Both the position numbers and the translations under genes were made by a program. From positions 18,536 through 82,535 of the IMG/VR virus record IMGVR_UViG_3300049617_000342: a stretch of DNA of 64,000 nucleotides; one strand, 5' to 3'. The notes under the pieces were generated by a model that was given only the letters and a program-made list of their open reading frames with translations, did not search any database and was not told the DNA's origin. Positions 18,531-47,507 of the stretch are shown piece by piece (the stretch's first letter is position 1; each line of letters starts with the position of its first letter). This DNA is from a virus (Duplodnaviria > Heunggongvirae > Uroviricota > Caudoviricetes).

Positions 18531-18556
18531 TCGCCTATATCGTACCAAGGTTGGAG

Positions 18557-18632
18557 TGGTAGCCCCACCCCGAGTCGAACGGGGATCATCCATTTAGGAA
18601 ACGGAAGCTCTGTCCACTTAAGCTATGGGGCC
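18557..18632 (-). tRNA. tRNA-Arg (anticodon CCU)
   Basis: Cloverleaf folded by hand on the reverse complement. Acceptor stem GGCCCCA/TGGGGCT (G1·U72), D-stem GCTT/GAGC, anticodon stem TCCGT/ATGGA with loop TTCCTAA, T-arm CCCCG-TTCGACT-CGGGG, and an encoded CCA. Coordinates ±1. Confidence 0.75.
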
Positions 18633-22430: not shown

Positions 22431-22655
22431 TCAACCCAGCTGCTCCCGAGCCACGATGAGTCCGCGCTCTGGGTCGTAGGGGGAGAAGCCGACGGTCACC
22501 TTGTCGCCAGTGATGACCCTGATCTTGAACTTCCTGAGGCGGCCGGCGAGCTGCGCCTTCACGGTGACGCCGTTGTCCAGCAGGACGGTGAACTGCCCGT
22601 TGCCCTTGCTCTCCACGACGGTGCCGTCCATCTTCAGTAGGTCATCTTTTGCCAT
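22431..22655 (-). CDS. infA: translation initiation factor IF-1
   Basis: 74 aa, colinear with bacterial IF-1 along its whole length. Compare MAKDDLLKMDGTVVESKGNGQFTVLLDNGVTVKAQLAGRLRKFKIRVITGDKVTVGFSPYD with E. coli [61 protein letters not shown]. Confidence 0.85.
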   Translation of the reverse strand: MAKDDLLKMDGTVVESKGNGQFTVLLDNGVTVKAQLAGRLRKFKIRVITGDKVTVGFSPYDPERGLIVAREQLG

Positions 22656-23730: not shown

Positions 23731-24240
23731 CTACCAGTGGTAGCTGAGGCCGGTGCCGAACGTGGGGCCGTTCTGGGAGTCGACCCTGTAGCTGAAGTAG
23801 TGCTGGACCCCGAAGAAGATGGGGCTCCTTATCTCGGACACCTGGAGCGAGTTCGCGGTGACGCCCAGCTTGGTGTGGCCCACGATCGGGGCGTCGAAGG
23901 AGGCCTGGAGTTGCTGGTTCTTGACGACCGTGCCGGCGTAGATGACCGCGGCCATCCACGTTATGCCCATGGCCTCGGCCTTCCTGACGGCCTGGTCTCC
24001 GATCTGCCTCTCGTACTGCTCTAGCTTGTCCGTGACCCCGGTCTGCTTGCCGGCGGCCTCCAGGGCCTTGCCGAAGGCATCCTTCTCGTTGGGGGTGTAG
24101 TCCGACGGTATCTCGGAGGAGGCGAAGTTTCGAAGCTGGTCGAAGGTCTGGGAGGCGTGCAGGGGCAGCGACGCCGCTAGGACTGCGGCGACAAGATAAG
24201 CTTTGAGATCTCGTCTACGTGGACCGGCTTGTAGTCCCAT
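23731..24240 (-). CDS. secreted beta-barrel (OMP-like) protein
   Basis: N-terminal signal peptide (RRR…AYLVAAVLAASLPLHA). Alternating amphipathic beta pattern. C-terminus GLSYHW ends in an aromatic residue, as in OM beta-barrels. The start overlaps the upstream gene by 64 nt. Confidence 0.4.
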   Translation of the reverse strand: MGLQAGPRRRDLKAYLVAAVLAASLPLHASQTFDQLRNFASSEIPSDYTPNEKDAFGKALEAAGKQTGVTDKLEQYERQIGDQAVRKAEAMGITWMAAVIYAGTVVKNQQLQASFDAPIVGHTKLGVTANSLQVSEIRSPIFFGVQHYFSYRVDSQNGPTFGTGLSYHW

Positions 24241-24767
24241 ACATCCACCCCCACGTTAATCATCTTACCCCTTTGCTTCCACTTTTCGTGGACATGGCCG
24301 CACAGCAGCCAGCGGCCATCGTCCTTCAGGCGCCACTTCAGATACCTTTGATCTTGGGAGGGGTCCGGGTCAGCGTACGGCATGTGGCTCAGGTTCACCA
24401 CGGCAACTCCCGGGATGTCCAGCGTCATGTGTTCGTGGACCTCGTCCCACCCATTCTCCAGGTACTTCTGAATCCACTTGGCTCGGTTTTCTGGATGCCT
24501 GGACTTGCGGTTCACGGGATGGCAGAAGTCGTGGTTGCCGCATATCAAGATCTTCTTGCCCATCAAGCGTTTGGTGTATAGCTCGACGCTCCTGAAGGCC
24601 ATCGAGAAGTCTCCAAGGTGGTACACGGTGTCGTCCGGCCCCACGACGTCGTTCCAGTTCTTGACCAGCATCTCGTTCATCTCTTCGACAGACGCGTATG
24701 GGCGACTGCAATACCGGATGACATTGGCGTGCCAAAAGTGATGGTCAGAAGTCAGATAGATCGCCAT
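24177..24767 (-). CDS. calcineurin-like metallophosphoesterase
   Basis: Motifs LTSDHHF, HLGDF, GNHD and CGHVHE. Confidence 0.6.
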   Translation of the reverse strand: MAIYLTSDHHFWHANVIRYCSRPYASVEEMNEMLVKNWNDVVGPDDTVYHLGDFSMAFRSVELYTKRLMGKKILICGNHDFCHPVNRKSRHPENRAKWIQKYLENGWDEVHEHMTLDIPGVAVVNLSHMPYADPDPSQDQRYLKWRLKDDGRWLLCGHVHEKWKQRGKMINVGVDVWDYKPVHVDEISKLILSPQS

Positions 24768-24778
24768 GGTCCGAAGTG

Positions 24779-25069
24779 TTAGCCACCGATCAGGGTGTTG
24801 GGTTTGGGAGCCAACGATGGTGCGTTGGCTATCCTCTTCAGCCCCTTCGCGAGCAGCTGCTCGTCCGATAGGGACTCGATGTCGATGTCGTTTCCGAAAA
24901 CCACGATGCCTATGAGGCCGTGGGGCTTGAGCTGCTCCAGGTACGTCTTGAGGACCACGTTCTTCAGCTCGCCCTTGCGGTCCTTGATGAACAGGACGCG
25001 GTCCTTGACCTCGAGGGTCTTCAGGCTGATGTTCGCGTAGTCGATCTGCTCTACCTTCTCGTCAAGCAT
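24779..25069 (-). CDS. hypothetical protein (96 aa)
   Basis: The internal ATG (MLDEKVEQ) is preferred; the N-terminal part of the track ORF is Arg-rich shadow. Confidence 0.4.
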   Translation of the reverse strand: MLDEKVEQIDYANISLKTLEVKDRVLFIKDRKGELKNVVLKTYLEQLKPHGLIGIVVFGNDIDIESLSDEQLLAKGLKRIANAPSLAPKPNTLIGG

Positions 25070-25320
25070 GCTTGACCTCCTGTTTGGGCGGTGGTGTTCG
25101 TGGCCTCGTTGAACTTCTTCCACGCGTCGTAGACCGCGACCGGCATGAAGTGCTTCGTATCGAAGGTGCTCCACTCGCCGGAGTCGTCGTAGACCAGAAA
25201 ACATGGGTAGCCGCCGGAGCCTTCCCCCAGGACTTCGGCCTCGTAGACCTTGCCCTCTGTCAGGCGCCTGGTCTTTTTGAAGATGCCGCTCTCGTACCCG
25301 TCACTGCAAACCAATGTCAT
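25051..25320 (-). CDS. hypothetical protein (89 aa)
   Basis: ORF in the track. Confidence 0.35.
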   Translation of the reverse strand: MTLVCSDGYESGIFKKTRRLTEGKVYEAEVLGEGSGGYPCFLVYDDSGEWSTFDTKHFMPVAVYDAWKKFNEATNTTAQTGGQACLTRR

Positions 25321-25667
25321 ACCTTAGGTTTACCGTCCACGTCGATCCAGCCTTCCTTCACCGCGTGCTCCTTGCCGTGCTCCTGGATGAGCCGGGGAAG
25401 CTCGTGCTTCCGCCAGTGCTCGCTCGCCCTGTCCCCGACCATCTTCTTGATGCCCTGCACGTTCTTCATGCCGTGGTACTCGTCGCTGGTCTCGACGGCC
25501 CTGGCCTGGGGGGTCGCTGGCTGTCTGGTGGATGGCAGGTTGCATGCGGAGGGAGGGCTCTTGTTCCAGTCGGGCGCTTCGCAGAGGACCTCGTCGTCCG
25601 CGTTCGTGACCGGCCGGAGCTTCTTGTTGTAGTGTCCCGCCGGGCAGACGTACGTGTAGATGGGCAT
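25317..25667 (-). CDS. hypothetical protein with N-terminal CxxxH…C zinc-ribbon-like motif
   Basis: 116 aa ORF beginning YTYVCPAGH…. Confidence 0.4.
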   Translation of the reverse strand: MPIYTYVCPAGHYNKKLRPVTNADDEVLCEAPDWNKSPPSACNLPSTRQPATPQARAVETSDEYHGMKNVQGIKKMVGDRASEHWRKHELPRLIQEHGKEHAVKEGWIDVDGKPKV

Positions 25668-26080
25668 CAGTGTCCCGAGCCGGCCCTCACCGCCTCGGCG
25701 CCGATGTACGCCGCGAGGAGGCCTATGCCTATTCCGATCCAGAGGTCGAACTTGGACTTCTGCTTCTCCTGAGCAAGCTGGCTCTGGTACAGGCTCGAGT
25801 CCGCTATGGCGTTGTCTCCGCGCTTCTGCTGGTACTGGATGTCGAGGTCCTTGAGCGTGAGCTGCTTCCCCTGCTCGTCCACTATCTGGGCGTTGTAGTC
25901 CCCGTCCACGAGCTGCTTCTGGACCGTCTTGTTGTAGTCGAGGCTGAGCCCGACGCGGTCGCAGTCCTTCACGGTGTCGCCGACCTTGAGGTCGACGGCG
26001 TTGGGGCAGTCCGCTGCGGCGCTACTTGCGATTGTTGTAGAAATCAGCAGGGTCGCCAGTACCGACTTTGCTCTCCGCAT
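25667..26080 (-). CDS. secreted/membrane-anchored protein (137 aa)
   Basis: Signal peptide MRRAKSVLATLLISTTIASSAAADC and a C-terminal hydrophobic segment (LWIGIGIGLLAAYIGA). Confidence 0.45.
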   Translation of the reverse strand: MRRAKSVLATLLISTTIASSAAADCPNAVDLKVGDTVKDCDRVGLSLDYNKTVQKQLVDGDYNAQIVDEQGKQLTLKDLDIQYQQKRGDNAIADSSLYQSQLAQEKQKSKFDLWIGIGIGLLAAYIGAEAVRAGSGH

Positions 26081-26300
26081 CCTGCTTCTCCTTCTGGAGC
26101 TGGTCTATCTTGGCCTGCTCCTGCTGTGTCTGCTGCTGGTTCTGGGAGATCTGCCCAGCAAGGGCGTCCTCCTTCTTCTTGTTCCTGTTGAGGAGCCACT
26201 GGTCCACGGCCTGTACGGCCCCGTCCTTGCCAAGCACCAGGAGCCCGACTATGATCAGCGGTATCAGTACCAGTAGGACCAGCTTCTCCAGCAACGTCAT
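26022..26300 (-). CDS. small membrane protein with Q-rich coiled coil (92 aa)
   Basis: MTLLEKLVLLVLIPLIIVGLLVLG… followed by QNQQQTQQEQAKIDQLQKEKQ. It is the C-terminal part of track ORF 26022..26765; the remainder is GC shadow. Confidence 0.35.
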   Translation of the reverse strand: MTLLEKLVLLVLIPLIIVGLLVLGKDGAVQAVDQWLLNRNKKKEDALAGQISQNQQQTQQEQAKIDQLQKEKQDAESKVGTGDPADFYNNRK

Positions 26301-26329
26301 GGTGGAGAAGAGGGCCTTGCCTGCCTCTA

Positions 26330-27319
26330 CTAGTCCTCGTCCCGTGCCTGCTGGCAGAACTCCACCACCGCCTTGCGGGCTGCTGGCGGGATTTTGTTGG
26401 ACATTACTCCCAGGAGGCTGCACGCCTCCTTGGCCTTCTTGAACAGATCCGCCTGCTTGTCCGGTTCCTGTGGGTTGGTCCATGGCCTGCTTTTCCCCTC
26501 CGCTATCTTGCGGGGCAATTCCTTCTGTATGAAGTTCCTGACTGCCTCGTACGTCACTATGAACGCGTAGCTGAGTTCCCTGCTGTCCGACGCGAAGGCC
26601 ACGCCAGCTATGTCCCCCTTGTCGTCCAGGACGGCGCTGCCGCTGGAGCCCGGGAGTATGGTCGCAGAGACAACCTGTGACTCGTAGTCCTTGAATATGG
26701 GTATACCGCCCAGGAACGCGCACAGGAAGGCCTTGTTCTCGTCGGCTAGGTCGGCCTCGGTGCACTCCTTGATTCCCGTCATGATCTGGATGATCTTCTT
26801 GCCCGAGAAGTGCCCCCTCGTTATGATTGTGGGGAACAGCGCGGGGTGCCCGACTATGGTCACCGGCTCGAACTCCCTTGGCCTGTGTGACGCGAGCCTG
26901 GCCTTGTCGCCGTACTCGTAGGCCACCGTGAGGGCGCAGAGGTCGTGCTCGTCAGAGAGGTAGTAGCCCGTCACGTTGTGCTCGGAGCCGTCGGGCCCGC
27001 TCACCTTGCCGCCCTTCTTTAGGACGTGCTCGCAGACGTGGCTGTTGGTCAGGATGAGGCTCTCGGACTCGTCGGTCTGTATGACGCTGCCGCTGCCGCC
27101 GGAGTTGCCCTCCTGGTTGGTGATCATCACCGCGAAGCTCTGGGGCGCCGGCCTCTTGTTCAGCTCGTCTATCAGGTGTAGGGCGTCCATGTGCTTCTTC
27201 CCTGCGATCCCACCGAAGGCCAGACTGGCGATCAGGAGAATGGCGGGGGCCTTGTCCACCGCGGCGTCCTTGGCCGCTGCGGCCCTGAACAGAATCTTGG
27301 CTATCAACGAAGCGATCAC
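26330..27319 (-). CDS. trypsin-like serine protease with N-terminal membrane anchor
   Basis: N-terminal hydrophobic segment. His motif LTNSHV, Asp region, Ser motif PGSSGSAV (GDSGG-like). Confidence 0.6.
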   Translation of the reverse strand: MIASLIAKILFRAAAAKDAAVDKAPAILLIASLAFGGIAGKKHMDALHLIDELNKRPAPQSFAVMITNQEGNSGGSGSVIQTDESESLILTNSHVCEHVLKKGGKVSGPDGSEHNVTGYYLSDEHDLCALTVAYEYGDKARLASHRPREFEPVTIVGHPALFPTIITRGHFSGKKIIQIMTGIKECTEADLADENKAFLCAFLGGIPIFKDYESQVVSATILPGSSGSAVLDDKGDIAGVAFASDSRELSYAFIVTYEAVRNFIQKELPRKIAEGKSRPWTNPQEPDKQADLFKKAKEACSLLGVMSNKIPPAARKAVVEFCQQARDED

Positions 27320-27332
27320 AAATTCTCCTTTG

Positions 27333-29048
27333 TCATTGCTGGCTTATCTCCTGAGAAGCCTTGATTATGCCCTCTTGCATTGCGCGGATCTTCTCCGCCT
27401 CCTCGGTGTTCGAGACGGCGATAACCCCACCGAGTGTCATAAGCATCTGCGCGACGGACAGCGAGTTGTCCAGCGCGGTCATGGTCACCTTGGCGGGGTC
27501 CATGATGCCCGCCTCCCACCAGTCCACGTACTTCATCCCCAGAGCGTCGAACACCAGGAACTTGCCGTCCTTGGGGCCGACCAGGTCGGCCGTGTTCTGG
27601 AGGTCCTTCTCGTCTATGAGGCCGGCGTTCTTTAGTATCTGGATGAACGGCATCGCCATGGCCTTCCTGAGGATGCCCTCGGCGCCCTCGGGCGACATCC
27701 CCTTCGCTATCTGGAGCAGCGTGGTTCCTCCACCCGGGACGACGCCCTTCTCGACCGCGCTGCGGACCGAGCTGACCGCGTCGACCACCCGAGCGTGGCG
27801 CTCCTTGGCCTCGAAGCTGGACACGCCGCCGGCATAGACGACCGCGACGCCGCCCGTTAGGCAGCTGATGCGGTACCGTATGCGGTCCTGGTCGAAGTCG
27901 TTGGCGCCCTGCATCTTCTCCTTGAGGTCTGCTATCCTCTTCTCGATCAGCTCGATCTTGGCGTCCGCCTCGACGACGGTGTCGCTCGGGGTGACCTTGA
28001 TCGACCGGGCGAAGCCCATGTTGAGGATGGTGGCCTCCTTGAGCCCGTGGGCCACGGGGTCGAACACCTGCCCGTCGACGTAGGCCGCGAGGTCGTGCAG
28101 GAAGCCCTGCTTGCCGTGCGCCTGGCCGTTCCTGGGGGTGATCAGCGGCATGCACGTGAACCGGCCGAGCCTGAAGTTCTGCGCGAGCAGCTTCAGCACC
28201 GCGTCGGAGTACCTGTGGGCGAAGATGATAAGGGGCGTCATCAGGGCCCGGCCGTTCTCGCCGATCTCCTTGCTGACGTCCGTCATGACTGGGATTATGT
28301 CCTCGGCCACGTTGATCTCGCCGTCGTAGAGCAGCACGTATGCGCCGCCCTCGATCTTCGTGTCGCCGTAGGCGTTGTTGTTGACGAACAGGGTGCTGGC
28401 GGAGCCGCCCAGGTCGCGGAGCCCCGTGGTTATAGGGAAGCCAGGCTTGATCTCGACGCTGGTGTCCGCCCCGGCGCCCTCCTCGGCTATGATCATCCCG
28501 TCCTCGCCTACCTTGTCGGCGGCCTCGGCCACCTTCTCGGCTATCTCGAGGTCGTGGTTGGCGCTGACCTTGGCTACGTGCTTGAGGGCGGCGCGGCTGT
28601 CCTCGACGGACATGCCCTTGATCTGCTTGGCCATGGCCTCGACCGCCGGCTTGACCTTGTCGTTCAGTATGGTCTTGAGCCTGCGGCTGAGCTCCTGGGG
28701 GCTGATGTGCGGGTTCTTCTGGAGGAACTCCTGGCCCTCGCGGACCATGGCGGCAGCCAGCACTATGGCCGTCGTGGTGCCGTCTCCGGCGACCCTAGCG
28801 GTGCGCTCGCAGACCTCCTTGGAGGCGTCCACGACCACCCGCTCGACGGCGCCCTGCTCCGCGTAGTACCTGGATACGGTGACGCCGTCCTTGGTGGACA
28901 GCGGCGCCTTGCCAAGCTCCTGCTCGAGGAGCATGGTGCGCCCGCCGGGGCCGAGGGTCATGCCCACGGCCTTCGACAGGTTGTCTATCGCGGTGAAAAC
29001 CTTGAGCCTGAACTCTGCGCTGTCAAGAAACGTTATCGGTGCCGGCAT
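27333..29048 (-). CDS. groL: chaperonin GroEL (Cpn60)
   Basis: 571 aa, colinear with GroEL. Matches include AGDGTTTA, the equatorial ATP-binding regions, and GGVAVVYAGGVSSFEAKERHARVVDAVSSVRSAVEKGVVPGGG. Confidence 0.9.
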   Translation of the reverse strand: MPAPITFLDSAEFRLKVFTAIDNLSKAVGMTLGPGGRTMLLEQELGKAPLSTKDGVTVSRYYAEQGAVERVVVDASKEVCERTARVAGDGTTTAIVLAAAMVREGQEFLQKNPHISPQELSRRLKTILNDKVKPAVEAMAKQIKGMSVEDSRAALKHVAKVSANHDLEIAEKVAEAADKVGEDGMIIAEEGAGADTSVEIKPGFPITTGLRDLGGSASTLFVNNNAYGDTKIEGGAYVLLYDGEINVAEDIIPVMTDVSKEIGENGRALMTPLIIFAHRYSDAVLKLLAQNFRLGRFTCMPLITPRNGQAHGKQGFLHDLAAYVDGQVFDPVAHGLKEATILNMGFARSIKVTPSDTVVEADAKIELIEKRIADLKEKMQGANDFDQDRIRYRISCLTGGVAVVYAGGVSSFEAKERHARVVDAVSSVRSAVEKGVVPGGGTTLLQIAKGMSPEGAEGILRKAMAMPFIQILKNAGLIDEKDLQNTADLVGPKDGKFLVFDALGMKYVDWWEAGIMDPAKVTMTALDNSLSVAQMLMTLGGVIAVSNTEEAEKIRAMQEGIIKASQEISQQ

Positions 29049-29356
29049 TATTCCTCGTAGTCGTCAGCGTCGTAGTTGTCTTCGCCCAGGACCACGACGT
29101 TGTTGAGGTCTCCGAGGTCGATGATGTTAAGGTCCTTGTCGGTGTCGAGCAGGTAGATGTAGCCCTCGCCGATGTCCTTGACGATGCCCTCGATGTTGTC
29201 CGTATCCGAGTCGGCGTAAACGGCCCTGACCACCTTGCCGGTCACGTGCGCTGCGAGCCTGGCGTACTTGCTGGTCTCTGAAACTCCGTCCGCGGCGAGC
29301 TTCTTGGCCACGGTTCCTGCTAGTGTTGGTGCGTAGTCGATCGTTTCTTCTGTCAT
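29048..29356 (-). CDS. hypothetical acidic protein (102 aa); a co-chaperonin role is speculative
   Basis: Translationally coupled (TAATG) immediately upstream of GroEL. No recognisable GroES or gp31 motifs. Confidence 0.35.
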   Translation of the reverse strand: MTEETIDYAPTLAGTVAKKLAADGVSETSKYARLAAHVTGKVVRAVYADSDTDNIEGIVKDIGEGYIYLLDTDKDLNIIDLGDLNNVVVLGEDNYDADDYEE

Positions 29357-29802
29357 ATGTTTTCCTCCTGGCTCTTGGCCGTGTACTTGCCCTCATAGAG
29401 GGCCTTGGAAACATAAGTGTACTGCAAAAGGAGGTACGAGGGAGGAACCGCCTGGATACCCATCTTGGCGGCGATGCCGTCGGGGTTCGGCTGGAAGCCA
29501 TTCAGCCTTAGGCCCAAGGGTCCGGCTAGGCTGCCGGTGGCTCCGTCCGCCGCCGCTTCGTCAACTTTGGCAGCAAACTCCCTCAGCTCCTGGTCGGTGG
29601 GGGTCTCCGTCTTGCACCTCTTGCCGATGCCTATGACGTAGCGGTTCTTGGTCTCGTCCTCGTAGACGTAATACATCTGCTTATGGACCACGCCGTCGAA
29701 TAGGGCCTTCCTGGTTTCTTCCTTGAATAGGGGCTTTATCTTGTCCGACCAGTCCTCGGTCTGTATTTCGGACCCCTCTTGCATTTTCGCTTCCATTACC
29801 AC
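29353..29802 (-). CDS. hypothetical protein (149 aa)
   Basis: ORF in the track. Confidence 0.4.
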   Translation of the reverse strand: MVMEAKMQEGSEIQTEDWSDKIKPLFKEETRKALFDGVVHKQMYYVYEDETKNRYVIGIGKRCKTETPTDQELREFAAKVDEAAADGATGSLAGPLGLRLNGFQPNPDGIAAKMGIQAVPPSYLLLQYTYVSKALYEGKYTAKSQEENI

Positions 29803-30074
29803 TCCACCTCGAACCTGAGTTCTCCGTTGGGGCCCTTCGTGTCCGGGCCGGGGTTTATGAAGAGCTTTATGCCGCTCTCCGACAGTATCTTCTCCTGCAC
29901 CTTCTCGGCGTACCGCTCGGGCACGTAGAAGTAGGTGTTCTGGAAGCCGAGCCTGGCGTAGCGGAGCATGTGCGCGAAGGCCATGTCGGGCATCCTCACG
30001 ACCTCCTCCCTAGACGCCTTGGTGGCCTTGCCCAGCTTCTGGGCCCAGCTACCCTTCTTCTTCCGTCTCATCAT
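29796..30074 (-). CDS. hypothetical protein (~92 aa)
   Basis: Internal ATG chosen to avoid a 176-nt overlap with the upstream gene. Confidence 0.3.
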   Translation of the reverse strand: MMRRKKKGSWAQKLGKATKASREEVVRMPDMAFAHMLRYARLGFQNTYFYVPERYAEKVQEKILSESGIKLFINPGPDTKGPNGELRFEVEW

Positions 30075-30726
30075 CCGCCTTACGGTGGCCACGGGCCCAG
30101 TCCGTCCGAAGTTGGTTAGGGAGTCCGCCGTCATGGTAGTTGAGGCCAAGCGCATCGCATTGCTCCTGTATGGTGGGGTTCCCCCACGGGTCCAGTATCT
30201 TGTCGCCCTTGCCCAGGCCGGCAAGCTGTATCAGGTTCAGTATCACGAGCGAGGGGAGCAGCCTCCTCTCCCTGCGGTCGCAGCGGACGGGCCAGTGGTC
30301 GCCGATGCAGGTGAGGAACTCGTCCTCGTCGAACTGCTCCTCTCGCCCCGCCGCCCCGCGCCTGGGCCGGGCTGGGCCGTCCCTGTCTATGTGCCAGTCC
30401 TTGCCCCTACAGAGGACGGCTATGGGCTCCCAGGCGTTGGTGATCCGCCTGCTCCTCGTGGTCACGACGTGCCTGTCCCTGTGCCACGATATGAGCGACA
30501 CGAGGTGGAAGCCGGCGATCTCCAGCTCGGTCAGGAGCTTGGCGCCGTTGCCCGGGGCATCCACGTGTATCGGCATCGAGAGGCATATCAGGCCGCGCTT
30601 GTCGACCTGGCTGGCCTGGTCTATCACCGGGGCCGAGTCCCACGTCTTGGCGTACGGCATCCTGGATATGAGTGCCTGGAAGCTTCCCCTCTCCGGCACC
30701 ACCACGCTGCTCTTCTTGGCCGCCAC
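30049..30726 (-). CDS. hypothetical protein (225 aa); weak resemblance to circularly permuted DNA methyltransferases
   Basis: A late ILDPWGNP segment is reminiscent of MTase motif I (ILDPFxGSG) but lacks GxG, and there is no clean DPPY motif. Confidence 0.3.
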   Translation of the reverse strand: MAAKKSSVVVPERGSFQALISRMPYAKTWDSAPVIDQASQVDKRGLICLSMPIHVDAPGNGAKLLTELEIAGFHLVSLISWHRDRHVVTTRSRRITNAWEPIAVLCRGKDWHIDRDGPARPRRGAAGREEQFDEDEFLTCIGDHWPVRCDRRERRLLPSLVILNLIQLAGLGKGDKILDPWGNPTIQEQCDALGLNYHDGGLPNQLRTDWARGHRKADDETEEEG

Positions 30727-30736
30727 TGTCTCTCCG

Positions 30737-30991
30737 TTACCTGTAGGTGCAGCTTACGGCGACGCTTCCGTTGGAGTGGGAGAGGACCACGGTGCACTGC
30801 CTGTCTCCGCGGTCGCACTCGTAGATGTCGGCGAAGTCGACCTTCTCGCTGAGCCTACAGTTCGAGTCCAGTATGGGCTCCGCGGGGACCGCGGGCGGGT
30901 GCTTGATGCCGTAGTACGCCCCGCCGCCCACACCGACCAGGATCAGCGCGACGGCCAGCAGCAGGACAGCGTCAAACAGACTTAGTTTCAA
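30737..30991 (-). CDS. small membrane protein (84 aa)
   Basis: N-terminal TM helix LFDAVLLLAVALILVGVGGGAYY. C-terminal Cys-containing domain. Confidence 0.4.
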   Translation of the reverse strand: MKLSLFDAVLLLAVALILVGVGGGAYYGIKHPPAVPAEPILDSNCRLSEKVDFADIYECDRGDRQCTVVLSHSNGSVAVSCTYR

Positions 30992-31223
30992 GTGCGAGTA
31001 CCTCGTCCTTCGGGACGGCCACTATGCGGATGTCCCCGTTCACGAACATGATTGGTGCGGTGATCTTGAATTTCTTCACGAAGTTGTTGACGGAGTGGAC
31101 GAACATCCTCATGCCGTGGGAGCCGAAGTTCTCGTCGAGGTACACGACGAGGAACTCGCCTGGCTTCACGTCGACGTGGGCTATCCGTTCTACGAGCGCT
31201 TCTGGTGTTAGCGTCTCTGACAT
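30972..31223 (-). CDS. hypothetical protein (83 aa)
   Basis: ORF in the track. Confidence 0.4.
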   Translation of the reverse strand: MSETLTPEALVERIAHVDVKPGEFLVVYLDENFGSHGMRMFVHSVNNFVKKFKITAPIMFVNGDIRIVAVPKDEVLALETKSV

Positions 31224-31294
31224 TTGTCCCCAAAAAGTGAAAGGGCACCGGAGAATTTCCGATGCCCTTATAGTTTACCTTTGGGTACTACTAC

Positions 31295-32704
31295 TTAGCT
31301 GTTGTTGGCCTTTGGGTCGATCAGCGTCTTGCTGGTTTTGTCCTCGAGTTTGCCGAGGTATCCAGGTGCGTCGATACCGCTGCTCTTGAGCATCTCGTGG
31401 AAGCCTGGTAGCATCCCCGCGAAACTCTTCACGAAGCCAGCGACTCCGCTGTCCCCGTTTCCGCTTCCACCGTCGAAGACCACGACCTTGTCGAACTTGA
31501 GGTTCTTGATTGCCTCGGTCTGCTTGGTGACGAGCGTCTCCATCTTCTCGATCATTAGGAGTGTTGGTGCGAGCTCAGGCGATGCTGCCGCGATGAGGTT
31601 CTTGTAGCCGGCTGCCTTGGCGTCGAGGACGAGCTGGATTCCTTTGGCTTCCGCCTCGTACTTGGCGAGGATACCGTCTGCCTGCCCCTTCGCCTCGATG
31701 CGGGTCTTCTCTGCGTTGGCGTTTGCCTGTGTCTCGATGATGCTCTTGGTTACTTGTTGCTGCGCGAGTTGCTCCTTCTCGAGCTTGGCGAGCTCTTTCT
31801 CTTTTTCCGCCTTGAAGACCGCTGTTGCGGCTTCGGCTTGGGCTACCTGACCGGCTCTGGTCGCGGTTGCCTTGGCCACTTCCAAGGTTGCGTTGTAGCT
31901 GGCGATCTTGGCGTTCGCGTCGTTCTCACCCTTGATTGCGTTGGAGTTGAACTCGGCGACCTTGATTCTCTGGTTGGATGTCGCTTCTTGCTTCCCCACC
32001 TCTGCTGCGGCGTTCTGCTGGGCGACGCTGACCTGTTGGTCCTTGGTGGCTGTTGCTACGCCGATTTCCCCGTCCTTGTTGCGGCCGGCTACGGCGATCT
32101 TGGCTTCGTTCAAGGCACCGGCTATGGCGTTCTGGCCGATAGCCTTGAGGTACCCGGACTCGTCGGTGATGTCGTGGATGTTGACGTTGATGATCTCTAG
32201 GCCGATCTTGTGGAGCTCAAGGTTGACGTTGTCGTCGACCGTCTTGAGGAACTTGTCTCGGTTGCTGTTGATCTCCTCGATCTGCAAGGTCGCTATTGCG
32301 AGACGGAGCTGGCCGAGAACCATGTCCCGTGCCTGGGTCATTATCTCTTCCTTCTTCAAGCCGAGCAAGCGCTCTGCCGCGTTCTGCATGATCTCGGGTT
32401 TGGTCGAGATCGCGACCGTGAAGGTGGAGGGGATGCTTACCCGGATGTTGTTCTTCGCCAAGGCGCCCTGAAGGTCGACCTCGAGCGCGAACGGGTAGAG
32501 CGACATGTACGCGTAGTCCTGGATGAGCGGGATTACGAACGCGCCGCCGCCGTGGATGCAGCGTGCGGTCTGGTTGCCGCCGACGCGGCCGTAGATGACT
32601 AGGATCTCGTTCGAGGCGCAGCGCTTGTACTGGTTGACCGCGAAGAGGAGGCCGAACAGGAATATTGCCGCCGGCACGACGTAAAGCGCTATGGTTCCAA
32701 ACAT
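31295..32704 (-). CDS. flotillin-like SPFH/Band-7 protein (YqiK-like)
   Basis: N-terminal TM, then an SPFH domain (…VIPLIQDYAYMSL…), then a long Ala/Glu-rich coiled-coil 'flotillin' region (AQAEAATAVFKAEKEKELAKLEKEQLAQQQ…). Confidence 0.75.
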   Translation of the reverse strand: MFGTIALYVVPAAIFLFGLLFAVNQYKRCASNEILVIYGRVGGNQTARCIHGGGAFVIPLIQDYAYMSLYPFALEVDLQGALAKNNIRVSIPSTFTVAISTKPEIMQNAAERLLGLKKEEIMTQARDMVLGQLRLAIATLQIEEINSNRDKFLKTVDDNVNLELHKIGLEIINVNIHDITDESGYLKAIGQNAIAGALNEAKIAVAGRNKDGEIGVATATKDQQVSVAQQNAAAEVGKQEATSNQRIKVAEFNSNAIKGENDANAKIASYNATLEVAKATATRAGQVAQAEAATAVFKAEKEKELAKLEKEQLAQQQVTKSIIETQANANAEKTRIEAKGQADGILAKYEAEAKGIQLVLDAKAAGYKNLIAAASPELAPTLLMIEKMETLVTKQTEAIKNLKFDKVVVFDGGSGNGDSGVAGFVKSFAGMLPGFHEMLKSSGIDAPGYLGKLEDKTSKTLIDPKANNS

Positions 32705-33295
32705 TTAACTCTCCTTTGATTGTAGGCCGACAATCGGCTCGACGAGTAGTTTACCATCGTATATCCCCGCAACGCGAATGCGCTGAAAGGCCTTGACTTC
32801 CCCGGACTTGACGATCGCCTCGAACTCCTTGAGGCCGCCGAGGGACTGGATCTGGACCGTCGCCTTGCCGTCCTCCTTGGGGAGGTAGACCATGCCGTTC
32901 TTGCCGACCATCGAGGCCATGTCGAGCTCGTAGTCCGGGGTCTTGTCCAGCCTCTTTATCAGGTACATCACCGTGCTGGTGAGGACCATGGTGGCGAAGC
33001 CCGCCGCGAAGGCGAGGGCCGCGGTGGCGGCGGACGAGAAGCCGTGCTCGAATCTAAAGGACAGGCCCGACCAGCCGAAGCCCATCAGGAAGCCGAAGAT
33101 CGAGATGATCGATAGTAGCTTGAACTGGTTGTCCGAGTGGTTCGCCGTGGCGTGGGGGTGCCCGACGTCGTGGACGTGGACCTCGCCGAGGCCGTGGGCG
33201 GCGCCCATCACGTCTCCGACGAAGATCGAGATCAGCCGGAAGCCGAACAGGATCGAGCCGAAGCTCGCGATAGCCATGTAGAACTTGTATTCCAT
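32705..33295 (-). CDS. NfeD-like membrane protein (YqiJ-like partner of SPFH proteins)
   Basis: Multi-TM N-terminus plus a C-terminal soluble beta (OB-like) domain. Immediately upstream of, and stop/start-adjacent to, the flotillin gene, matching the conserved NfeD–SPFH operon arrangement. Confidence 0.6.
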   Translation of the reverse strand: MEYKFYMAIASFGSILFGFRLISIFVGDVMGAAHGLGEVHVHDVGHPHATANHSDNQFKLLSIISIFGFLMGFGWSGLSFRFEHGFSSAATAALAFAAGFATMVLTSTVMYLIKRLDKTPDYELDMASMVGKNGMVYLPKEDGKATVQIQSLGGLKEFEAIVKSGEVKAFQRIRVAGIYDGKLLVEPIVGLQSKES

Positions 33296-33657
33296 TATTT
33301 TGCCCTCTCGACGAGCGCCGCTATGGCGCTGGTTATTTCATAGTCTCCGGCCACCGGCGCGTTGGCCGATATCTGGCCCGGCTTCGGCGCGGCCCTGCTC
33401 CCCGGGTTCCAGGCGCCGTCCACCACGCCGCTGCCCGAGAGCATCTTGATCAGCCCGGTCGCCTCGCCCAGGAACTTCTGGCTATCCACGACGAACGACA
33501 GCCCCGCCAGGGCGGCTGCGACGACGTCGGTGCTCTGGTACGGTGTCGGGTCCCGGAGGACGTCCAGGTCACTCGCGGCCGTGACGAGCTCTTCCCCGGA
33601 CTGGGGGCTCAGCTTCTTCCTGTTCCGGGGCGACGACAGTTGGTCGTAGGTTATCAT
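33295..33657 (-). CDS. hypothetical protein (120 aa)
   Basis: ORF in the track. Confidence 0.4.
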   Translation of the reverse strand: MITYDQLSSPRNRKKLSPQSGEELVTAASDLDVLRDPTPYQSTDVVAAALAGLSFVVDSQKFLGEATGLIKMLSGSGVVDGAWNPGSRAAPKPGQISANAPVAGDYEITSAIAALVERAK

Positions 33658-33668
33658 GCGCTGGAATT

Positions 33669-33893
33669 CTACGCGGGTCCATGGCCTCCACGGTTTCGCT
33701 CAGCTTTTTTGGTCCTGACCCTGATCTCCTCGGCCTCCTGGACCTGGTCGTCGAGCGTGAGGCCTGCGGACTTCAGGACCTTGACGAAGCCGCCCTGGAC
33801 GCCGCCGAGTATCGAGATGACGAAGAAGGCGGCCACGGGGTTCGCGGTCGCCCAGTTGACGAGCCTCTCCGCGAATTTCACAAGGTCATCCAC
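33669..33893 (-). CDS. small membrane protein (74 aa)
   Basis: Central hydrophobic helix PVAAFFVISILGGVQGGFV. Confidence 0.35.
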   Translation of the reverse strand: MDDLVKFAERLVNWATANPVAAFFVISILGGVQGGFVKVLKSAGLTLDDQVQEAEEIRVRTKKAERNRGGHGPA

Positions 33894-33938
33894 CGCTTCC
33901 GACCCTCAGCCTTATGCAGGCGCCCGTCAGCGGGTGGC

Positions 33939-34394
33939 TCATTCGCTGCACATGCAGTGGGTGCCGTGCTCGTCCATGTGTATCTCCTTGAGCCTCTTGT
34001 GGCCGGCGTCCGACCAGCAGATCGCGCGGCAGTACATCTCGCCCTGGAAGCCGGTGTCGTTCCTGATGTTGTCGCGCTCCTCGTCCATGACCGCGTCGCA
34101 GAGCAGCTCCACCGAGCCGTCGAAGTTCCCGGTCCAGTAGTCCGAGGCCTTCGTGATGATCTCCTTGTCCTCGTCGGCGAAGGGGCCGTTCCTCATGTCG
34201 CTGGCGAAGGCGTACATGCCCTCGACGCACCCGGAGTGCCAGGCGTAGGGGTCGAGCGGCGGAGGAGAGGCGGGCTTCTCCACGGGCACGCCGTCCGCTA
34301 TCCGAGGCTCCTGGATCGCCCTGTGCGAGAGCACGCCGGCGAAGACCGCGGAGGCCAGGGCGGCACCGACCACGAAGCCAAACAGTGTCCTCAT
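33939..34394 (-). CDS. secreted Cys-rich protein (151 aa)
   Basis: Internal ATG (MRTLFGFVVGAALASAVFAGVL is a signal peptide) with GGAGGA RBS. Eight Cys in the mature part. The N-terminal part of the track ORF is shadow. Confidence 0.45.
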   Translation of the reverse strand: MRTLFGFVVGAALASAVFAGVLSHRAIQEPRIADGVPVEKPASPPPLDPYAWHSGCVEGMYAFASDMRNGPFADEDKEIITKASDYWTGNFDGSVELLCDAVMDEERDNIRNDTGFQGEMYCRAICWSDAGHKRLKEIHMDEHGTHCMCSE

Positions 34395-34537
34395 CAGCAC
34401 ATCCTCCATCCGAATAGGTACGCTATCGACAGCAGGATCAGGAGCGCCACGGGGACGCCGGTGGCGTACTCGAGGGCGCACACGGCCACGAGGGTCGCTG
34501 CGGATGCTCCGGCTGCTGTCAGGATTATCTTTTTCAC
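34394..34537 (-). CDS. possible small membrane protein (47 aa, GTG start)
   Basis: VKKIILTAAGASAATLVAVCALEYATGVPVALLILLSIAYLFGWRMC. Its stop overlaps the ATG of the downstream secreted protein (TGATG). Below the track size cut-off. Confidence 0.25.
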   Translation of the reverse strand: MKKIILTAAGASAATLVAVCALEYATGVPVALLILLSIAYLFGWRMC

Positions 34538-34672
34538 GTTTGTATTTTACGGTCCTGGCGCGGGGGAGTGAGCCCCCGCCGGCGGGATTGCCTCTCGGCG
34601 ACACAGGTCACTAGCCCGTGAGGGTGGCGTTCCCATACCAGGTGCCGTTGCCACCAACAGGCAAAATGAAGT

Positions 34673-34993
34673 CTACTCGCAGTAGTGGAGCAGGAGCCAG
34701 GGGTACCTGTGGCGCTTGTCGGCGGGGCGGACCTCGCGGGCCCACTGCTGGGTGCCCTGCAGGACGATGCCCCAGCAGAGCGGCTCGTCGCGGCAGCGGT
34801 GGCAGGCCCTCAGCTCGTGCTCGCCCAGGCACCCGTCCTCGGGCTGGGACCTCTTGATCAGCCAGACCTCCTCGGCCGCGGCGTCGTTGGACTCGGCGAA
34901 GTCGGCGAGGTCCCTGGCGCCGAACGTGGGCTCGGGCATGGATGGCGTGCAGGCGAGGAGGAGCAGCAGCGCGAGGGGGCTAGGCACCTTCAT
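34673..34993 (-). CDS. secreted protein / possible lipoprotein (106 aa)
   Basis: Signal peptide MKVPSPLALLLLLAC (lipobox-like L-L-A-C), then a mature domain with 6 Cys. Confidence 0.4.
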   Translation of the reverse strand: MKVPSPLALLLLLACTPSMPEPTFGARDLADFAESNDAAAEEVWLIKRSQPEDGCLGEHELRACHRCRDEPLCWGIVLQGTQQWAREVRPADKRHRYPWLLLHYCE

Positions 34994-35243
34994 TCTTGAT
35001 GGCTTCCATGTGCCTGCGGATGTAGCGCATGAACAGGATGGCCTTGTCCTCGGCGAGGAACGTGGCGTTGCCTATGTCGCTGGTGGGCACGGGGAAGAGG
35101 AAGTGGTCGTCGGTCTCGTAGAAGAGCTGCGCGTCCCTGTAGTAGGCGAAGCGCACCCTGCCCCTGACGCGGTCCTTGAGCGTCACGGGTTGCCGAAGAG
35201 GGAGTGTATCGCCCTGAACACGTCGTAGCCGGTGACCATCCAC
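34980..35243 (-). CDS. hypothetical protein (87 aa)
   Basis: ORF in the track. Confidence 0.3.
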   Translation of the reverse strand: MDGHRLRRVQGDTLPLRQPVTLKDRVRGRVRFAYYRDAQLFYETDDHFLFPVPTSDIGNATFLAEDKAILFMRYIRRHMEAIKNEGA

Positions 35244-35341
35244 GTCACCATGCCGAGGACGACCACCGCAAGGGAGACACCGAGGTAGACGACCAGCAGG
35301 GCCCCGACGAACTTCGCCCCGGTTCTGAGGACCTTAGTCAC
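35183..35341 (-). CDS. small membrane protein (52 aa, GTG start)
   Basis: VTKVLRTGAKFVGALLVVYLGVSLAVVVLGMVTWMV… GTG overlaps the upstream stop (GTGA). Confidence 0.3.
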   Translation of the reverse strand: MTKVLRTGAKFVGALLVVYLGVSLAVVVLGMVTWMVTGYDVFRAIHSLFGNP

Positions 35342-35517
35342 TTGCCGTCTTCCATCCCCTGCGTCGGCGCGCCGAGCAGGTAGCCTGTCGCCTTGTCCTT
35401 CACCGTCGAGCCCACGACGTAGAGCACGGGGAGGCTGATGGCCAGCGCCACGATGCCCAGGAACAGCTGCGCCAGGAAGATGCCGATGCCGAGCTTGAAT
35501 CCGTCCTTGACTGTCAT
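35338..35517 (-). CDS. small membrane protein (59 aa)
   Basis: MTVKDGFKLGIGIFLAQLFLGIVALAISLPVLYVVG… First gene of the leftward block. Confidence 0.35.
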   Translation of the reverse strand: MTVKDGFKLGIGIFLAQLFLGIVALAISLPVLYVVGSTVKDKATGYLLGAPTQGMEDGK

Positions 35518-35557
35518 GTTTTCTCCTTTTCCCATTTGTATCAGTATACTTCTGCAA
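35518..35557. promoter_or_regulatory. AT-richer divergent intergenic region between leftward and rightward gene blocks
   Basis: It is the only noticeably A/T-enriched 40 bp stretch in this part of the window (ttttctccttttcccatttgtatcagtatacttctgcaa). It contains TTGTAT and TATACT hexamers, and genes diverge on both sides. Confidence 0.3.
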
Positions 35558-36136
35558 ATGTCTGTCGACAAAAAGAACCACAACGACTTCATCCAGGCGC
35601 GCGGCCACTACTCCACCGTCCCCAACGAGATCTGGGAGAGGGGGGACCTCGACCACCTGGCCAAGGTGGTGTGGTGCTACATCCTGAGCCGGGCCCCCGA
35701 CTGGGGCTCGAGCCGGAACAACCTCGCCAGGAACCTGAAGATGGGCAAGGACCAGGCCACCCGCTGCATCGGGGACCTGGAGCGCCTGGGGATGCTCAGG
35801 GTGACCAAGAGCTTCGGCGAGCGCGGCTGGGACTTCGAGGTCGTCCCCCCCACCGGGTGGTCACCGGAGTCCACTGGACCAGATCTGGTCCGGGGGCGGA
35901 CTAGGCCCCAGTCCACACACAATAAGCAAAACGTTATTAATAAACATATTAAAGAGGCTTCGAAACGTAAGCCATCGAAACCAGGTTGGAGGAGGAGCGA
36001 GGTCTCCGAGAAGACCGGGTTTGAGAGGGAGAGCGGGCGGTGGCCTCATGACCCCGAGGGCGACGCCCTCAGGAAGAGGATGAGGGCCGAGGACCGGGAC
36101 CGCGCGTGGCGCGACTCCAAGAAGCAGGACCAGTAG
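35558..36136 (+). CDS. hypothetical DNA-binding (winged-helix-like) protein, basic C-terminus
   Basis: Internal ATG (MSVDKKNHNDF…). The segment QATRCIGDLERLGMLRV is HTH/wHTH-like. The K/R-rich tail looks like a replication-initiator or regulator. Confidence 0.4.
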   Translation: MSVDKKNHNDFIQARGHYSTVPNEIWERGDLDHLAKVVWCYILSRAPDWGSSRNNLARNLKMGKDQATRCIGDLERLGMLRVTKSFGERGWDFEVVPPTGWSPESTGPDLVRGRTRPQSTHNKQNVINKHIKEASKRKPSKPGWRRSEVSEKTGFERESGRWPHDPEGDALRKRMRAEDRDRAWRDSKKQDQ

Positions 36137-36146
36137 AATGTGCCCG

Positions 36147-36161
36147 AGGCTCTCAGAGCCT
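36147..36161. promoter_or_regulatory. perfect 15-bp palindrome AGGCTCTcAGAGCCT
   Basis: It sits immediately after the stop of the 35558 gene and before the aminotransferase gene. It could be an operator or a short terminator stem. Confidence 0.25.
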
Positions 36162-36218
36162 TGCGGAACCCAGGGGGCCACCGCCAGAAATGGCTCCCGA
36201 ACTTTTCACGGAGAACCG

Positions 36219-37412
36219 ATGTCAGACTCGGCCATGCTAGACGCCAAGAAGCCCCTGCCCGAGGACTGGATCGACCTCGGCATAGGCGACGCGCGCATAG
36301 TCAGGGAGGCCCTGCTGGAGTCCTTCCCGGACCTCCAGGCCCGCGAGGTCTTCAGGGACCGCTGGCTCTCGCAGGAGGTCCAGTCGCTGGGCTACCTCCA
36401 GCCGGAGGGAATCCCGGGCCTCAGAATTTCCCTCAGGAAGCTGCACGAGCTACAGTTCGGGGAGGTGTGCGTCACCGCCGGCGCCAAGGCGGCGCTGCTG
36501 GCCGTGCTCGTGGCCGCGAAGGGGATGGGCCGGAAGGCCGTCACCGCCTACGTGCCTTACTGGTCCAGCTTCCCCAGGCTCGCCGAGATCGCCGGCCTCC
36601 ACTTCTTCCCGTTCGCGCCGCTCGCCAAGGAGGCCCAGCCATTCAAGCCCGGCGAGACCGTGATGATCGTCACCGACCCCAACAACCCCGACGGCCGGAA
36701 CACTTACGACTCGGTCTACGAGACGATCAGGGAGATGGGCTACATGCTGGTCCACGACGCCGCCTACTGGTCGCCGATCTACGGCATCGACAAGTCGAGG
36801 AAGCTGCCGTCCGCGGACGTGCACGTGTTCAGCTGCTCGAAGGCCATGGGCCTCAGCGGGGCCAGGGTCGGCTACACGATAGCGTGGCCCGAGATGCACA
36901 GGGAGATAGTCGAGGCGGTGGAGGCCACGACCAGCGGAGCGTCCGAGTACGCGCAGCAGGTGGTCTGGGACGCCGTGAACCTACAGACCAGCCGGCCCGA
37001 GCAGTGGGCCTCGTTCGTCAACGACGCCAAGAGCAAGATCGACATGAACAGGAAGGCGTTCCTGGAGAACCTGCCGAACGGCGTCGCCAGCACCGGCAGC
37101 ATGTACGCGGCGGACGACCAGCAGGGCATCTTCCTCTGGCTGGAGAAGGGACCGGAGTACGGGGTGGACAGGGTCCGCGTCGTGGACGGCAAGGACTTCG
37201 GCAGACCCGGATGGTTCAGAATCAACCTGGGCAACTACGGCCTAAAGGAAACAATCGACATTGCCAAGAAAAGAATGGGGAAGTCCCGAAGCGGAGCTGA
37301 ACCGAGTTGGAAAGATCCTAAGTCGAAGGACTGGTCGTCAATCGGCAAGGCGCTATCGGGCCTCCGCAAGTTTCGTGGGGGGTCCAAATCCCGACAAAAA
37401 TCAAAGCGCTAG
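36219..37412 (+). CDS. PLP-dependent aminotransferase (class I/II fold)
   Basis: 397 aa from the internal ATG (MSDSAMLD). Lys motif SCSKAMGLSGARVGY matches SxSKxxGxxGxRxG of fold-type I aminotransferases. A PNNPDG-type turn lies upstream. Confidence 0.65.
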   Translation: MSDSAMLDAKKPLPEDWIDLGIGDARIVREALLESFPDLQAREVFRDRWLSQEVQSLGYLQPEGIPGLRISLRKLHELQFGEVCVTAGAKAALLAVLVAAKGMGRKAVTAYVPYWSSFPRLAEIAGLHFFPFAPLAKEAQPFKPGETVMIVTDPNNPDGRNTYDSVYETIREMGYMLVHDAAYWSPIYGIDKSRKLPSADVHVFSCSKAMGLSGARVGYTIAWPEMHREIVEAVEATTSGASEYAQQVVWDAVNLQTSRPEQWASFVNDAKSKIDMNRKAFLENLPNGVASTGSMYAADDQQGIFLWLEKGPEYGVDRVRVVDGKDFGRPGWFRINLGNYGLKETIDIAKKRMGKSRSGAEPSWKDPKSKDWSSIGKALSGLRKFRGGSKSRQKSKR

Positions 37413-47379: not shown

Positions 47380-47507
47380 GCCTCGACTTCTACATGCTGA
47401 TGTGCGGGTACTCGGTGTCGTTCATGTTCTACTGGAGCAACCCCATGTTCAACTGCCACACCATACTGGACAACCGCAGGGTGATGATCGCCATGGAGAA
47501 GAAGTGA
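47376..47507 (+). CDS. small hydrophobic protein (43 aa)
   Basis: MSLDFYMLMCGYSVSFMFYWSNPMF… ATGA overlap with the upstream stop. Confidence 0.3.
   Translation: MSLDFYMLMCGYSVSFMFYWSNPMFNCHTILDNRRVMIAMEKK

Follow-up and report, generated by a model that had tools for sequence, protein, structure and literature searches.

Positions 23731-35517 of an uncultured phage genome encode a chaperonin amid many small envelope proteins, which raises the question of whether these genes serve one function. The window, the whole stretch of DNA that we analyzed, is 64,000 nucleotides (nt) long (positions 18,536 to 82,535 of IMG/VR record IMGVR_UViG_3300049617_000342, Caudoviricetes). The original prediction, made from the letters alone, described these 12 kb as one leftward module for host-envelope remodelling or exclusion with a GroEL in its middle. 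We instead read the region, with moderate confidence, as two unrelated units. Unit A (35571-31241) is an accessory operon that ends in a captured nfeD-floT pair, and Unit B (30726-23731) is a lineage-conserved block within the replication module. Two observations carry this division: the ten Unit A genes (35517-31295) have no homologues in the loci of seven related contigs, and they are bracketed by a promoter-like site and a terminator.

The window has a GC content of 60-67%. It encodes a phage portal, a DnaE-type DNA polymerase III (Pol III) alpha subunit, a ribonucleotide reductase (RNR), a helicase, and a protein of 1377 amino acids (aa) with a C1q domain. The source is an uncultured lineage of large phages distantly related to Myxococcus phage Mx1. 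We place it there because the 11.8-kb region has no DNA-level match among 50,697 GenBank phages (megablast), because among cultured phages Mx1 gives the best matches to GroEL, Pol III alpha, and the portal protein, at only ~30% identity, and because contigs with homologues of p225, a protein described below, reach 113-168 kb. The genome is probably about 150 kb in size. An identical GroEL gene occurs on a metagenomic contig (Logan SRR18649394), and the same proteins are encoded on a Joint Genome Institute contig of 93,434 bp. The AT skew changes sign at ~35.5 kb, which marks a strand switch, and the leftward transcription arm begins with the 12 kb studied here.

Comparison with related contigs

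We used p225, a protein with a methyltransferase fold, as a lineage marker (71 homologues) and read seven relatives (L002/L004, L006, L007, L008, L010, L011, and L012) over at most 10 kb on either side. Together with the window, these make eight contexts. GC content is 43-50% in the four relatives for which it was measured. The p225 gene lies upstream of GroEL in all eight contexts; the two are directly adjacent in every relative and separated by three private genes in the window. In five relatives the annotated gene next after GroEL is that of the protease, and tblastn detects protease similarity in a sixth (L012). The same method finds SP137 in six relatives, TM92 in five, and the Zn-ribbon protein in all seven. 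Unit B continues into genes for an exonuclease, translation initiation factor IF-1, primase, and Pol III alpha, and the relatives' block likewise runs on into exonuclease, primase, and Pol III alpha. Even the overlap of the SP169 start with the end of the phosphoesterase gene recurs in the relatives. Genes for an aminotransferase, RNR, and helicase are divergent, as in the window, in four of the seven (L002, L006, L007, and L008). L012 has divergent RNR and helicase genes and no aminotransferase, and L010 and L011 are arranged differently.

A comparative search for the same ordered set of genes, which the original prediction had proposed as a check, thus returns the p225-GroEL block in all seven relatives and the Unit A genes in none. 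Also without a homologue in the seven loci are p83, TM84, p92, p147, p102, p89, and p96. Four window-specific genes or gene groups, TM84 among them, lie between the two units. The slot between the divergent region and p225 is occupied by four to five soluble small genes in the three closest relatives and by different genes in the others.

Coding signal and envelope-targeted products

The minus-strand genes of the region were re-derived from start codons, ribosome-binding sites (RBS), and frame-specific GC content at third codon positions (GC3). All 25 minus-strand open reading frames (ORFs), including those of 47-59 aa, have a GC3 of 0.75-0.98, compared with 0.25-0.69 in the other two frames. 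An independent gene call, made on the Logan contig, gives identical genes from GroEL leftwards, except that MPE196 is not listed.

Topology was called by Kyte-Doolittle scanning, which is heuristic. A signal peptide, lipobox, or transmembrane (TM) segment is predicted in 13 of the 25 products (TM59, TM52, Lipo106, TM47, Cys156, TM74, NfeD, flotillin, TM84, the protease, TM92, SP137, and SP169). The other 12 look cytoplasmic (the phosphoesterase, the Zn-ribbon protein, GroEL, the methyltransferase-fold protein p225, p68, p120, p83, p92, p147, p102, p89, and p96), and the claim that nearly every product carries such a signal was too broad. By the same crude criterion, 10 of 54 window ORFs outside the region are positive (Fisher p = 0.003). 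Most of these ten are internal stretches of Pol III alpha, the aminotransferase, or structural proteins, or are spurious antisense ORFs; about two are credible envelope cases. The enrichment is real, and the concentration of envelope-targeted proteins noticed in the original prediction holds up. The envelope-targeted share is eight of ten products in Unit A and four of 11 in Unit B, with TM84 in addition between the units.

Table 1. Features of the region and viral flotillin loci. Positions are those of the window unless a locus is named.
Feature	Position	Strand	Details
Promoter candidate, sigma-70-like	35543-35571	-	TTGTCG-17-TATACT, 26 nt 5' of TM59
TM59, 59-aa membrane protein	35338-35517	-	First gene of the operon; RBS GGAAAAGGAG; GC3 0.92; hydrophobic stretch 6-40
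TM52, 52-aa membrane protein	35183-35341	-	GTGA overlap with TM59 (35341/35338)
p68, 68-aa basic soluble protein	34980-35186	-	GTGA overlap with TM52 (35186/35183)
Lipo106, predicted lipoprotein	34673-34993	-	Lipobox LLAC, Cys15, and five more Cys
TM47, 47-aa two-helix hairpin	34394-34537	-	Weakest coding signal, GC3 0.77
Cys151/156	33939-34409	-	N-terminal signal or anchor, Pro-rich linker, 6-Cys domain
TM74, 74-aa single-pass membrane protein	33669-33893	-	
p120, soluble protein	33295-33657	-	TAATG overlap with nfeD
NfeD, short form (YuaF-like), 196 aa	32705-33295	-	Three predicted TM segments and probable C-terminal OB-type partner-binding domain
Flotillin, FloT-type SPFH protein	31295-32704	-	Start abuts the stop of nfeD
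Intrinsic terminator	31241-31269	-	12-bp stem and U-rich tail, directly after the floT stop
p83, soluble	30972-31223	-	Phage-specific
TM84, signal-anchored	30737-30991	-	4 Cys; phage-specific
p225, cytoplasmic	30049-30726	-	Fold of beta-class N6/N4 DNA methyltransferases, degenerate motifs
p92, p147, p102, soluble	29048-30074	-	Phage-specific; between p225 and GroEL
GroEL	27333-29048	-	Divergent, full-length
S1 (Trypsin_2) serine protease	26330-27319	-	Inner-membrane-anchored, probably periplasm-facing
TM92, bitopic	26022-26300	-	Coiled coil; conserved C-terminal DPxxFxNxR motif
SP137, predicted type I membrane protein	25667-26080	-	Cleavable signal peptide, conserved Cys pair, C-terminal TM anchor
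Zn-ribbon protein, p89, p96, metallophosphoesterase	24177-25667	-	Zn-ribbon protein 25317-25667; p89 and p96 phage-specific; cytoplasmic metallophosphoesterase 24177-24767
SP169, predicted secreted	23731-24240	-	Helical N-terminal part, four predicted C-terminal strands, terminal aromatic
Viral flotillin loci	L015-L094 (IMG/VR); L014 2971-5198; L013 3180-4850		

The accessory operon

Besides NfeD and flotillin, the predicted envelope set of Unit A comprises four mini membrane proteins and two Cys-rich proteins, one a lipoprotein and the other signal-anchored (Table 1). By pattern match, the signal of Lipo106 consists of K2, a hydrophobic core, and L-L-A-C at residues 12-15. The likely start of Cys151/156 is the ATG at 34394, which gives a TGATG overlap with TM47 (34396/34392). 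Several details of the original prediction are borne out here: the lipobox, two Cys-rich proteins (6 Cys each), at least six mini membrane proteins (six in the region are under 100 aa), and the chaining of small genes by GTGA and TGATG overlaps. No homologues of Lipo106 or Cys151/156 were found by tblastn in GenBank phages or by exact 8-mer scans of IMG/VR, which have low sensitivity.

The hairpin of the terminator that closes Unit A has a predicted energy of -31.1 kcal/mol (z = -4.8), and none of 200 shuffled sequences was equally stable. At the opposite border, the promoter candidate precedes TM59. A divergent gene for an HTH_36 DNA-binding protein (35561-36136, plus strand) starts just 43 nt from the start of TM59, so divergent promoters must overlap coding sequence. 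The HTH_36 protein is a candidate regulator of the switch region.

Early accessory or takeover clusters with small membrane proteins and lipoproteins include T4 Imm/Sp, T5 Llp, and the SPO1 host-takeover module. Like them, Unit A is a promoter-proximal, hypervariable run of very short genes, many for predicted membrane proteins and one for a Cys-containing lipoprotein. The likeness is in position and composition only, and PHROG, PADLOC, and tblastn searches give no sequence similarity. PHROG and PADLOC scans of the lipoprotein, flotillin, NfeD, and the small membrane proteins except TM59, TM52, and TM47 (p68 was also outside the scan) gave no homology to superinfection-exclusion or anti-phage defence proteins. 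PADLOC returned generic protease and methyltransferase similarity and nothing for flotillin or NfeD.

The NfeD-flotillin pair

The flotillin named in the original prediction is well founded. Its product matches PF01145 (SPFH/Band 7) with an E-value of 3.2e-25 (89.6 bits, cut-off 23.6) and PF15975, the C-terminal coiled-coil domain, with 30 bits (cut-off 27). It has 8000 homologues at E <= 1e-10, and both domains are present in 120 of 120 among the matches listed. Its identity to bacterial flotillins is 50-57%, and the best match with a name is in an Oligoflexia metagenome-assembled genome. Residues 1-26 are hydrophobic (Kyte-Doolittle 2.54) and may form an N-terminal membrane hairpin by this heuristic measure. 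Against the FloT equivalog model NF058507 (NCBIfam) it scores 165 bits, where the cut-off is 700. By these scores the protein is a member of the flotillin family and not a FloT equivalog.

The 196-aa protein encoded upstream has no direct Pfam match even at E <= 5, and a word-indexed search returned only the query itself. We used an exhaustive search instead, which gives 884 full-length homologues, and 12 of 60 homologues match PF01957. A profile of 60 homologues matches Bacillus subtilis YuaF (2K14) over the whole soluble domain (E 1.6e-5), and the next match is an archaeal stomatin operon partner protein (3WWV). In addition, the protein is 36% identical (E 6e-21) to the product of the gene immediately upstream of the Oligoflexia flotillin. 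On the strength of the Oligoflexia neighbor, the homologue set, its PF01957 matches, and the YuaF profile match, we assign it as a short-form NfeD of the YuaF type, in agreement with the original prediction.

The phage pair has the same two-gene order as B. subtilis yuaF-yuaG (floT), and the genes abut in both. Like YuaF, the phage NfeD is predicted to have three TM segments, probably with a C-terminal OB-type domain. The flotillin has the architecture of bacterial FloT: a predicted membrane hairpin at the N terminus, followed by the SPFH and Flot domains. Unlike yuaF-yuaG, the phage pair lies in a lytic-type phage genome and ends an operon of small membrane proteins without detectable homologues.

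Flotillins in other viruses

Among GenBank phages, credible annotated flotillins occur only in Vibrio phage KIT04 and phage csAssE-Sib. The IMG/VR scan adds at least 176 stretches that encode flotillin relatives, most of them on contigs of ~150 kb from a gut data set. We inspected 80 of these loci for an NfeD-like ORF that precedes flotillin by no more than 1.2 kb on the same strand, and 77 have one. The "transmembrane protein" annotated upstream of the csAssE-Sib flotillin is also NfeD-like (E 1.6e-11). KIT04 differs in that the partner has 82 aa and is TM-only, without an OB domain. These viral flotillins (csAssE-Sib, IMG/VR, and KIT04) belong to unrelated phage lineages and are 31-45% identical to the one in the window; common to all is a flotillin gene preceded on the same strand by a gene for a small membrane protein.

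Given the IMG/VR loci and csAssE-Sib, the nfeD-floT pair is, at the level of sequence, a recurrent viral accessory. The pair in the window would be an independent capture in a third, unrelated lineage. No paper discussing phage flotillins or phage SPFH proteins was found in the literature searched; the Perkons paper concerns integration into the host floA gene, not a phage flotillin.

The conserved GroEL block

The full-length GroEL of the original prediction is confirmed, although it is divergent. The protein matches PF00118, aligns to GroEL models over residues 11-544, and contains the GDGTTT and GGG motifs. Its best NCBIfam score is 309 bits against a cut-off of 397, which indicates a divergent member of the family. 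Identity is 56-60% within the lineage and ~30-34% to other GroELs. No GroES-type neighbor was recognised, and there is no Cpn10 Pfam match. We considered p102 as a GroES-like co-chaperonin and rejected it, as it resembles neither Escherichia coli GroES nor the product of the gene that precedes GroEL in Mx1. Mx1, another large phage, likewise encodes a full-length group I chaperonin, only ~30% identical to this one, without a recognisable GroES gene beside it, and Pseudomonas phage EL gp146 is a phage-encoded GroEL of the same kind. Unlike the GroELs of Mx1 and EL, that of the present lineage is always preceded by the methyltransferase-fold protein and usually followed by a membrane-anchored protease.

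p225, a gene the original prediction did not mention, has a weak Pfam match (E 0.013). Its AlphaFold2 (AF2) model has a predicted local distance difference test score (pLDDT) of 80, and Foldseek matches it to M.BceJIV, M1.HpyAVI, and MboIIA at E ~1e-9. The catalytic (D/S)PP(Y/F) motif and the FxGxG motif for S-adenosylmethionine binding are absent, and the family consensus is S-[IM]-P-I-H and DP[YWF]GNP. A scan of genome contigs for p225 relatives that might point to a host gave nothing. A metagenome scan gave one 1-kb fragment. In the sequences compared, the constant partner of GroEL is the methyltransferase-fold protein, not an envelope protein. This arrangement suggests a functional link between p225, possibly an inactive methyltransferase, and the viral chaperonin.

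The TM-anchored trypsin-like protease of the original prediction stands. It matches PF13365 (Trypsin_2) with 52.4 bits (cut-off 27.6), and alignment with the L002 orthologue shows H90, D122, S222, and five Cys to be invariant. A strongly basic flank precedes the single N-terminal TM segment in four orthologues. The nearest solved relatives are secreted Spl/V8 and Deg proteases. The basic flank, the invariant Cys, and the secreted relatives together suggest that the protease domain faces the periplasm. The Trypsin_2 fold, the H/D/S triad, and the extracytoplasmic-type Cys pattern are shared with MarP, HtrA/Deg, and staphylococcal Spl/V8. Unlike MarP, HtrA, and Spl, this protease is phage-encoded beside GroEL, has a single N-terminal anchor, and lacks a PDZ domain. 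Membership in HtrA/DegP was rejected, with no PDZ match and ~20 bits against cut-offs of 416-470. tblastn found no homologues of the protease, p225, or SP137 in the 50,697 GenBank phages.

SP169 had been described as an OMP-like barrel, a description that its structure prediction does not bear out. Modelled by AF2 from the single sequence, the protein reaches a pLDDT of only 41.7, and in this poor model helices are followed by just four C-terminal strands. The protein has the n, h, and c regions of a signal peptide, and a terminal W or F is present in five of five homologues. Profile searches of PDB gave nothing significant for SP169 or SP137, and SP169 also has no Pfam match.

Weighing the readings

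Several points weigh against a division into two unrelated units. The topology calls are based on hydropathy heuristics. The promoter scan is not above chance overall (4 sites versus 2.1 expected), so the support for the candidate in front of TM59 is positional, and the sigma-70 consensus may not suit the host. No homologue could be detected for eight of the ten Unit A genes, which leaves their roles to conjecture. A foreign composition of Unit A was considered and rejected: its GC3 is like that of the rest of the genome, and a recent acquisition is therefore not demonstrable. Flotillin could sit elsewhere in the genomes of the seven relatives inspected. Finally, GroEL and the protease are neighbors in five to six of the seven relatives, and in L002 and L007 the stop codon of one overlaps the start codon of the other; such adjacency could mean that the chaperonin in the cytoplasm and the protease in the envelope are functionally linked.

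That adjacency also favors a different reading, which we consider unlikely. GroEL, the periplasmic protease, TM92, SP137, and SP169 would form a dedicated, undescribed system in which chaperonin and protease work together on the quality control or remodelling of host envelope proteins. Together with the captured NfeD and flotillin, this would be a proteostasis toolkit for three compartments: GroEL would serve the cytoplasm, a protease like HtrA or MarP the periplasm, and NfeD-flotillin, as a holdase that needs no ATP, the membrane. Such a toolkit would sustain the protein machinery of the infected cell. The best NCBIfam matches of the protease are the MarP and HtrA families, and PMC11222466 describes a FloA-NfeD complex that stabilises unfolded proteins in membrane microdomains. 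However, flotillin and NfeD belong to a separate operon and occur in none of the relatives' loci. The protease, without PDZ, scores far below the HtrA and MarP cut-offs, no co-chaperonin was found beside GroEL, and the link between the three parts is by analogy only.

Still less likely is the single 12-kb module for envelope remodelling or superinfection exclusion, in which GroEL would fold or escort the envelope proteins. Envelope proteins are enriched over the whole stretch, and the genes are co-oriented and tightly packed with stop/start overlaps. The two halves nevertheless differ in evolutionary history and are separated by a strong terminator. GroEL is tied to the methyltransferase-fold protein and replication genes in all relatives and to promoter-proximal membrane genes in none, and 12 of the 25 products are cytoplasmic. 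As a proposal for one module with GroEL, the original prediction conflicts with the synteny of the relatives, the terminator, and the cytoplasmic half of the products; as a proposal for the accessory operon only, a remodelling or exclusion role is a reasonable inference.

We are similarly skeptical that a non-canonical system for lysis or lysis timing, of the holin, antiholin, or spanin type, is made up of TM92, SP137, the protease, and possibly the mini membrane proteins. TM92 is a small bitopic protein whose coiled-coil tail is charged, SP137 resembles a unimolecular spanin in size and end-to-end topology, and no endolysin, holin, or spanin family is found among the ~60 window products scanned. 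On the other side, SP137 does not pass the spanin lipobox test because D, N, or E precedes the conserved Cys (at -1) in all four full-length homologues. A muralytic enzyme is adjacent in none of the eight contexts, and the genes lie among replication genes, not late genes. The window covers only 64 kb, and lysis genes may lie elsewhere; they are probably outside the window or non-canonical. The original prediction had also judged that this is not an obvious lysis cassette, in keeping with the absence of lysozyme, amidase, and transglycosylase families from the region and the relatives' loci.

Small ORFs are common by chance in DNA of 62% GC, yet it is most improbable that the products are chance ORFs or virion proteins, given the frame-specific GC3 of all 25 genes, the agreement of the independent gene call for all but one of the genes it covers, the large distance from the portal gene (located at 1.4-3.5 kb) and the fibre genes (located at 53-64 kb), and a PHROG scan of 20 products that returned a phosphoesterase, a protease, and weak unknown families and none of the structural homology that the original prediction had named as its refutation.

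Neighboring genes

A class I/II pyridoxal-phosphate aminotransferase, which is also alliinase-like, is encoded at 36138-37412 (plus strand), opposite the GroEL arm. Its divergent position is kept in four relatives (L002 6564-7598, L006 7119-8141, L007 7444-8538, and L008 1108-2142). Beside it, three relatives encode a small matrixin-type (Peptidase_M10) protein (L002 5802-6368, L006 6367-6843, and L008 352-879), which is predicted to be TM-anchored in L002 and has no equivalent in the window. With these matrixin-type proteins, the lineage seems prone to carrying extracytoplasmic proteases.

The rightward nucleotide-metabolism arm includes two separate thymidylate-kinase-like genes (41678-42247 and 47402-48091, both plus strand) and a weak thymidylate-synthase-like gene (49235-50107). 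The 1377-aa protein (53400-57533, minus strand) has a C1q domain (PF00386, E 8e-21), a domain unusual for a phage, and is probably a tail fibre or receptor-binding protein.

Downstream of Unit B, a 74-aa IF-1 homologue (22431-22655, minus strand; PF01176 in the precomputed annotation) is encoded among the replication genes, and tblastn finds no counterpart in the loci of the seven relatives. A tRNA-Arg(CCT) gene (18557-18632, minus strand) covers the initial 37 nt of the longest ORF for Pol III alpha (14619-18593), so the start of Pol III alpha is probably further downstream.

Proposed roles and significance

Under the two-unit reading, we propose that a bacterium was the source of the nfeD-floT pair, which the phage acquired as a unit. 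Unit A would be transcribed, probably early, from a promoter beside the divergent control region. NfeD and FloT would assemble SPFH scaffolds in the inner membrane, and these scaffolds, by analogy with FloT/YuaF and FloA/NfeD, may help to maintain the organisation of the membrane and the stability of its proteins while infection proceeds. The lipoprotein and the small membrane proteins are probably accessory envelope factors that could, for example, exclude superinfecting phages, mask receptors, or time lysis. Only for the accessory operon is a role in envelope modification or exclusion plausible. GroEL would act in the cytoplasm as a phage chaperonin and take no part in the envelope function.

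What is new here is a further instance of nfeD-floT, a set of private membrane proteins without detectable homologues, and a conserved block centered on GroEL; current concepts are unchanged. The arrangement of methyltransferase-fold protein, GroEL, and periplasmic protease marks an uncultured clade distantly related to Mx1 and may point to the clients of a viral chaperonin. The nfeD-floT pairs of phages are recurrent and, if expressed, would offer a handle on what SPFH scaffolds do for a virus, with membrane stabilisation, exclusion, and lysis timing as the candidate roles.

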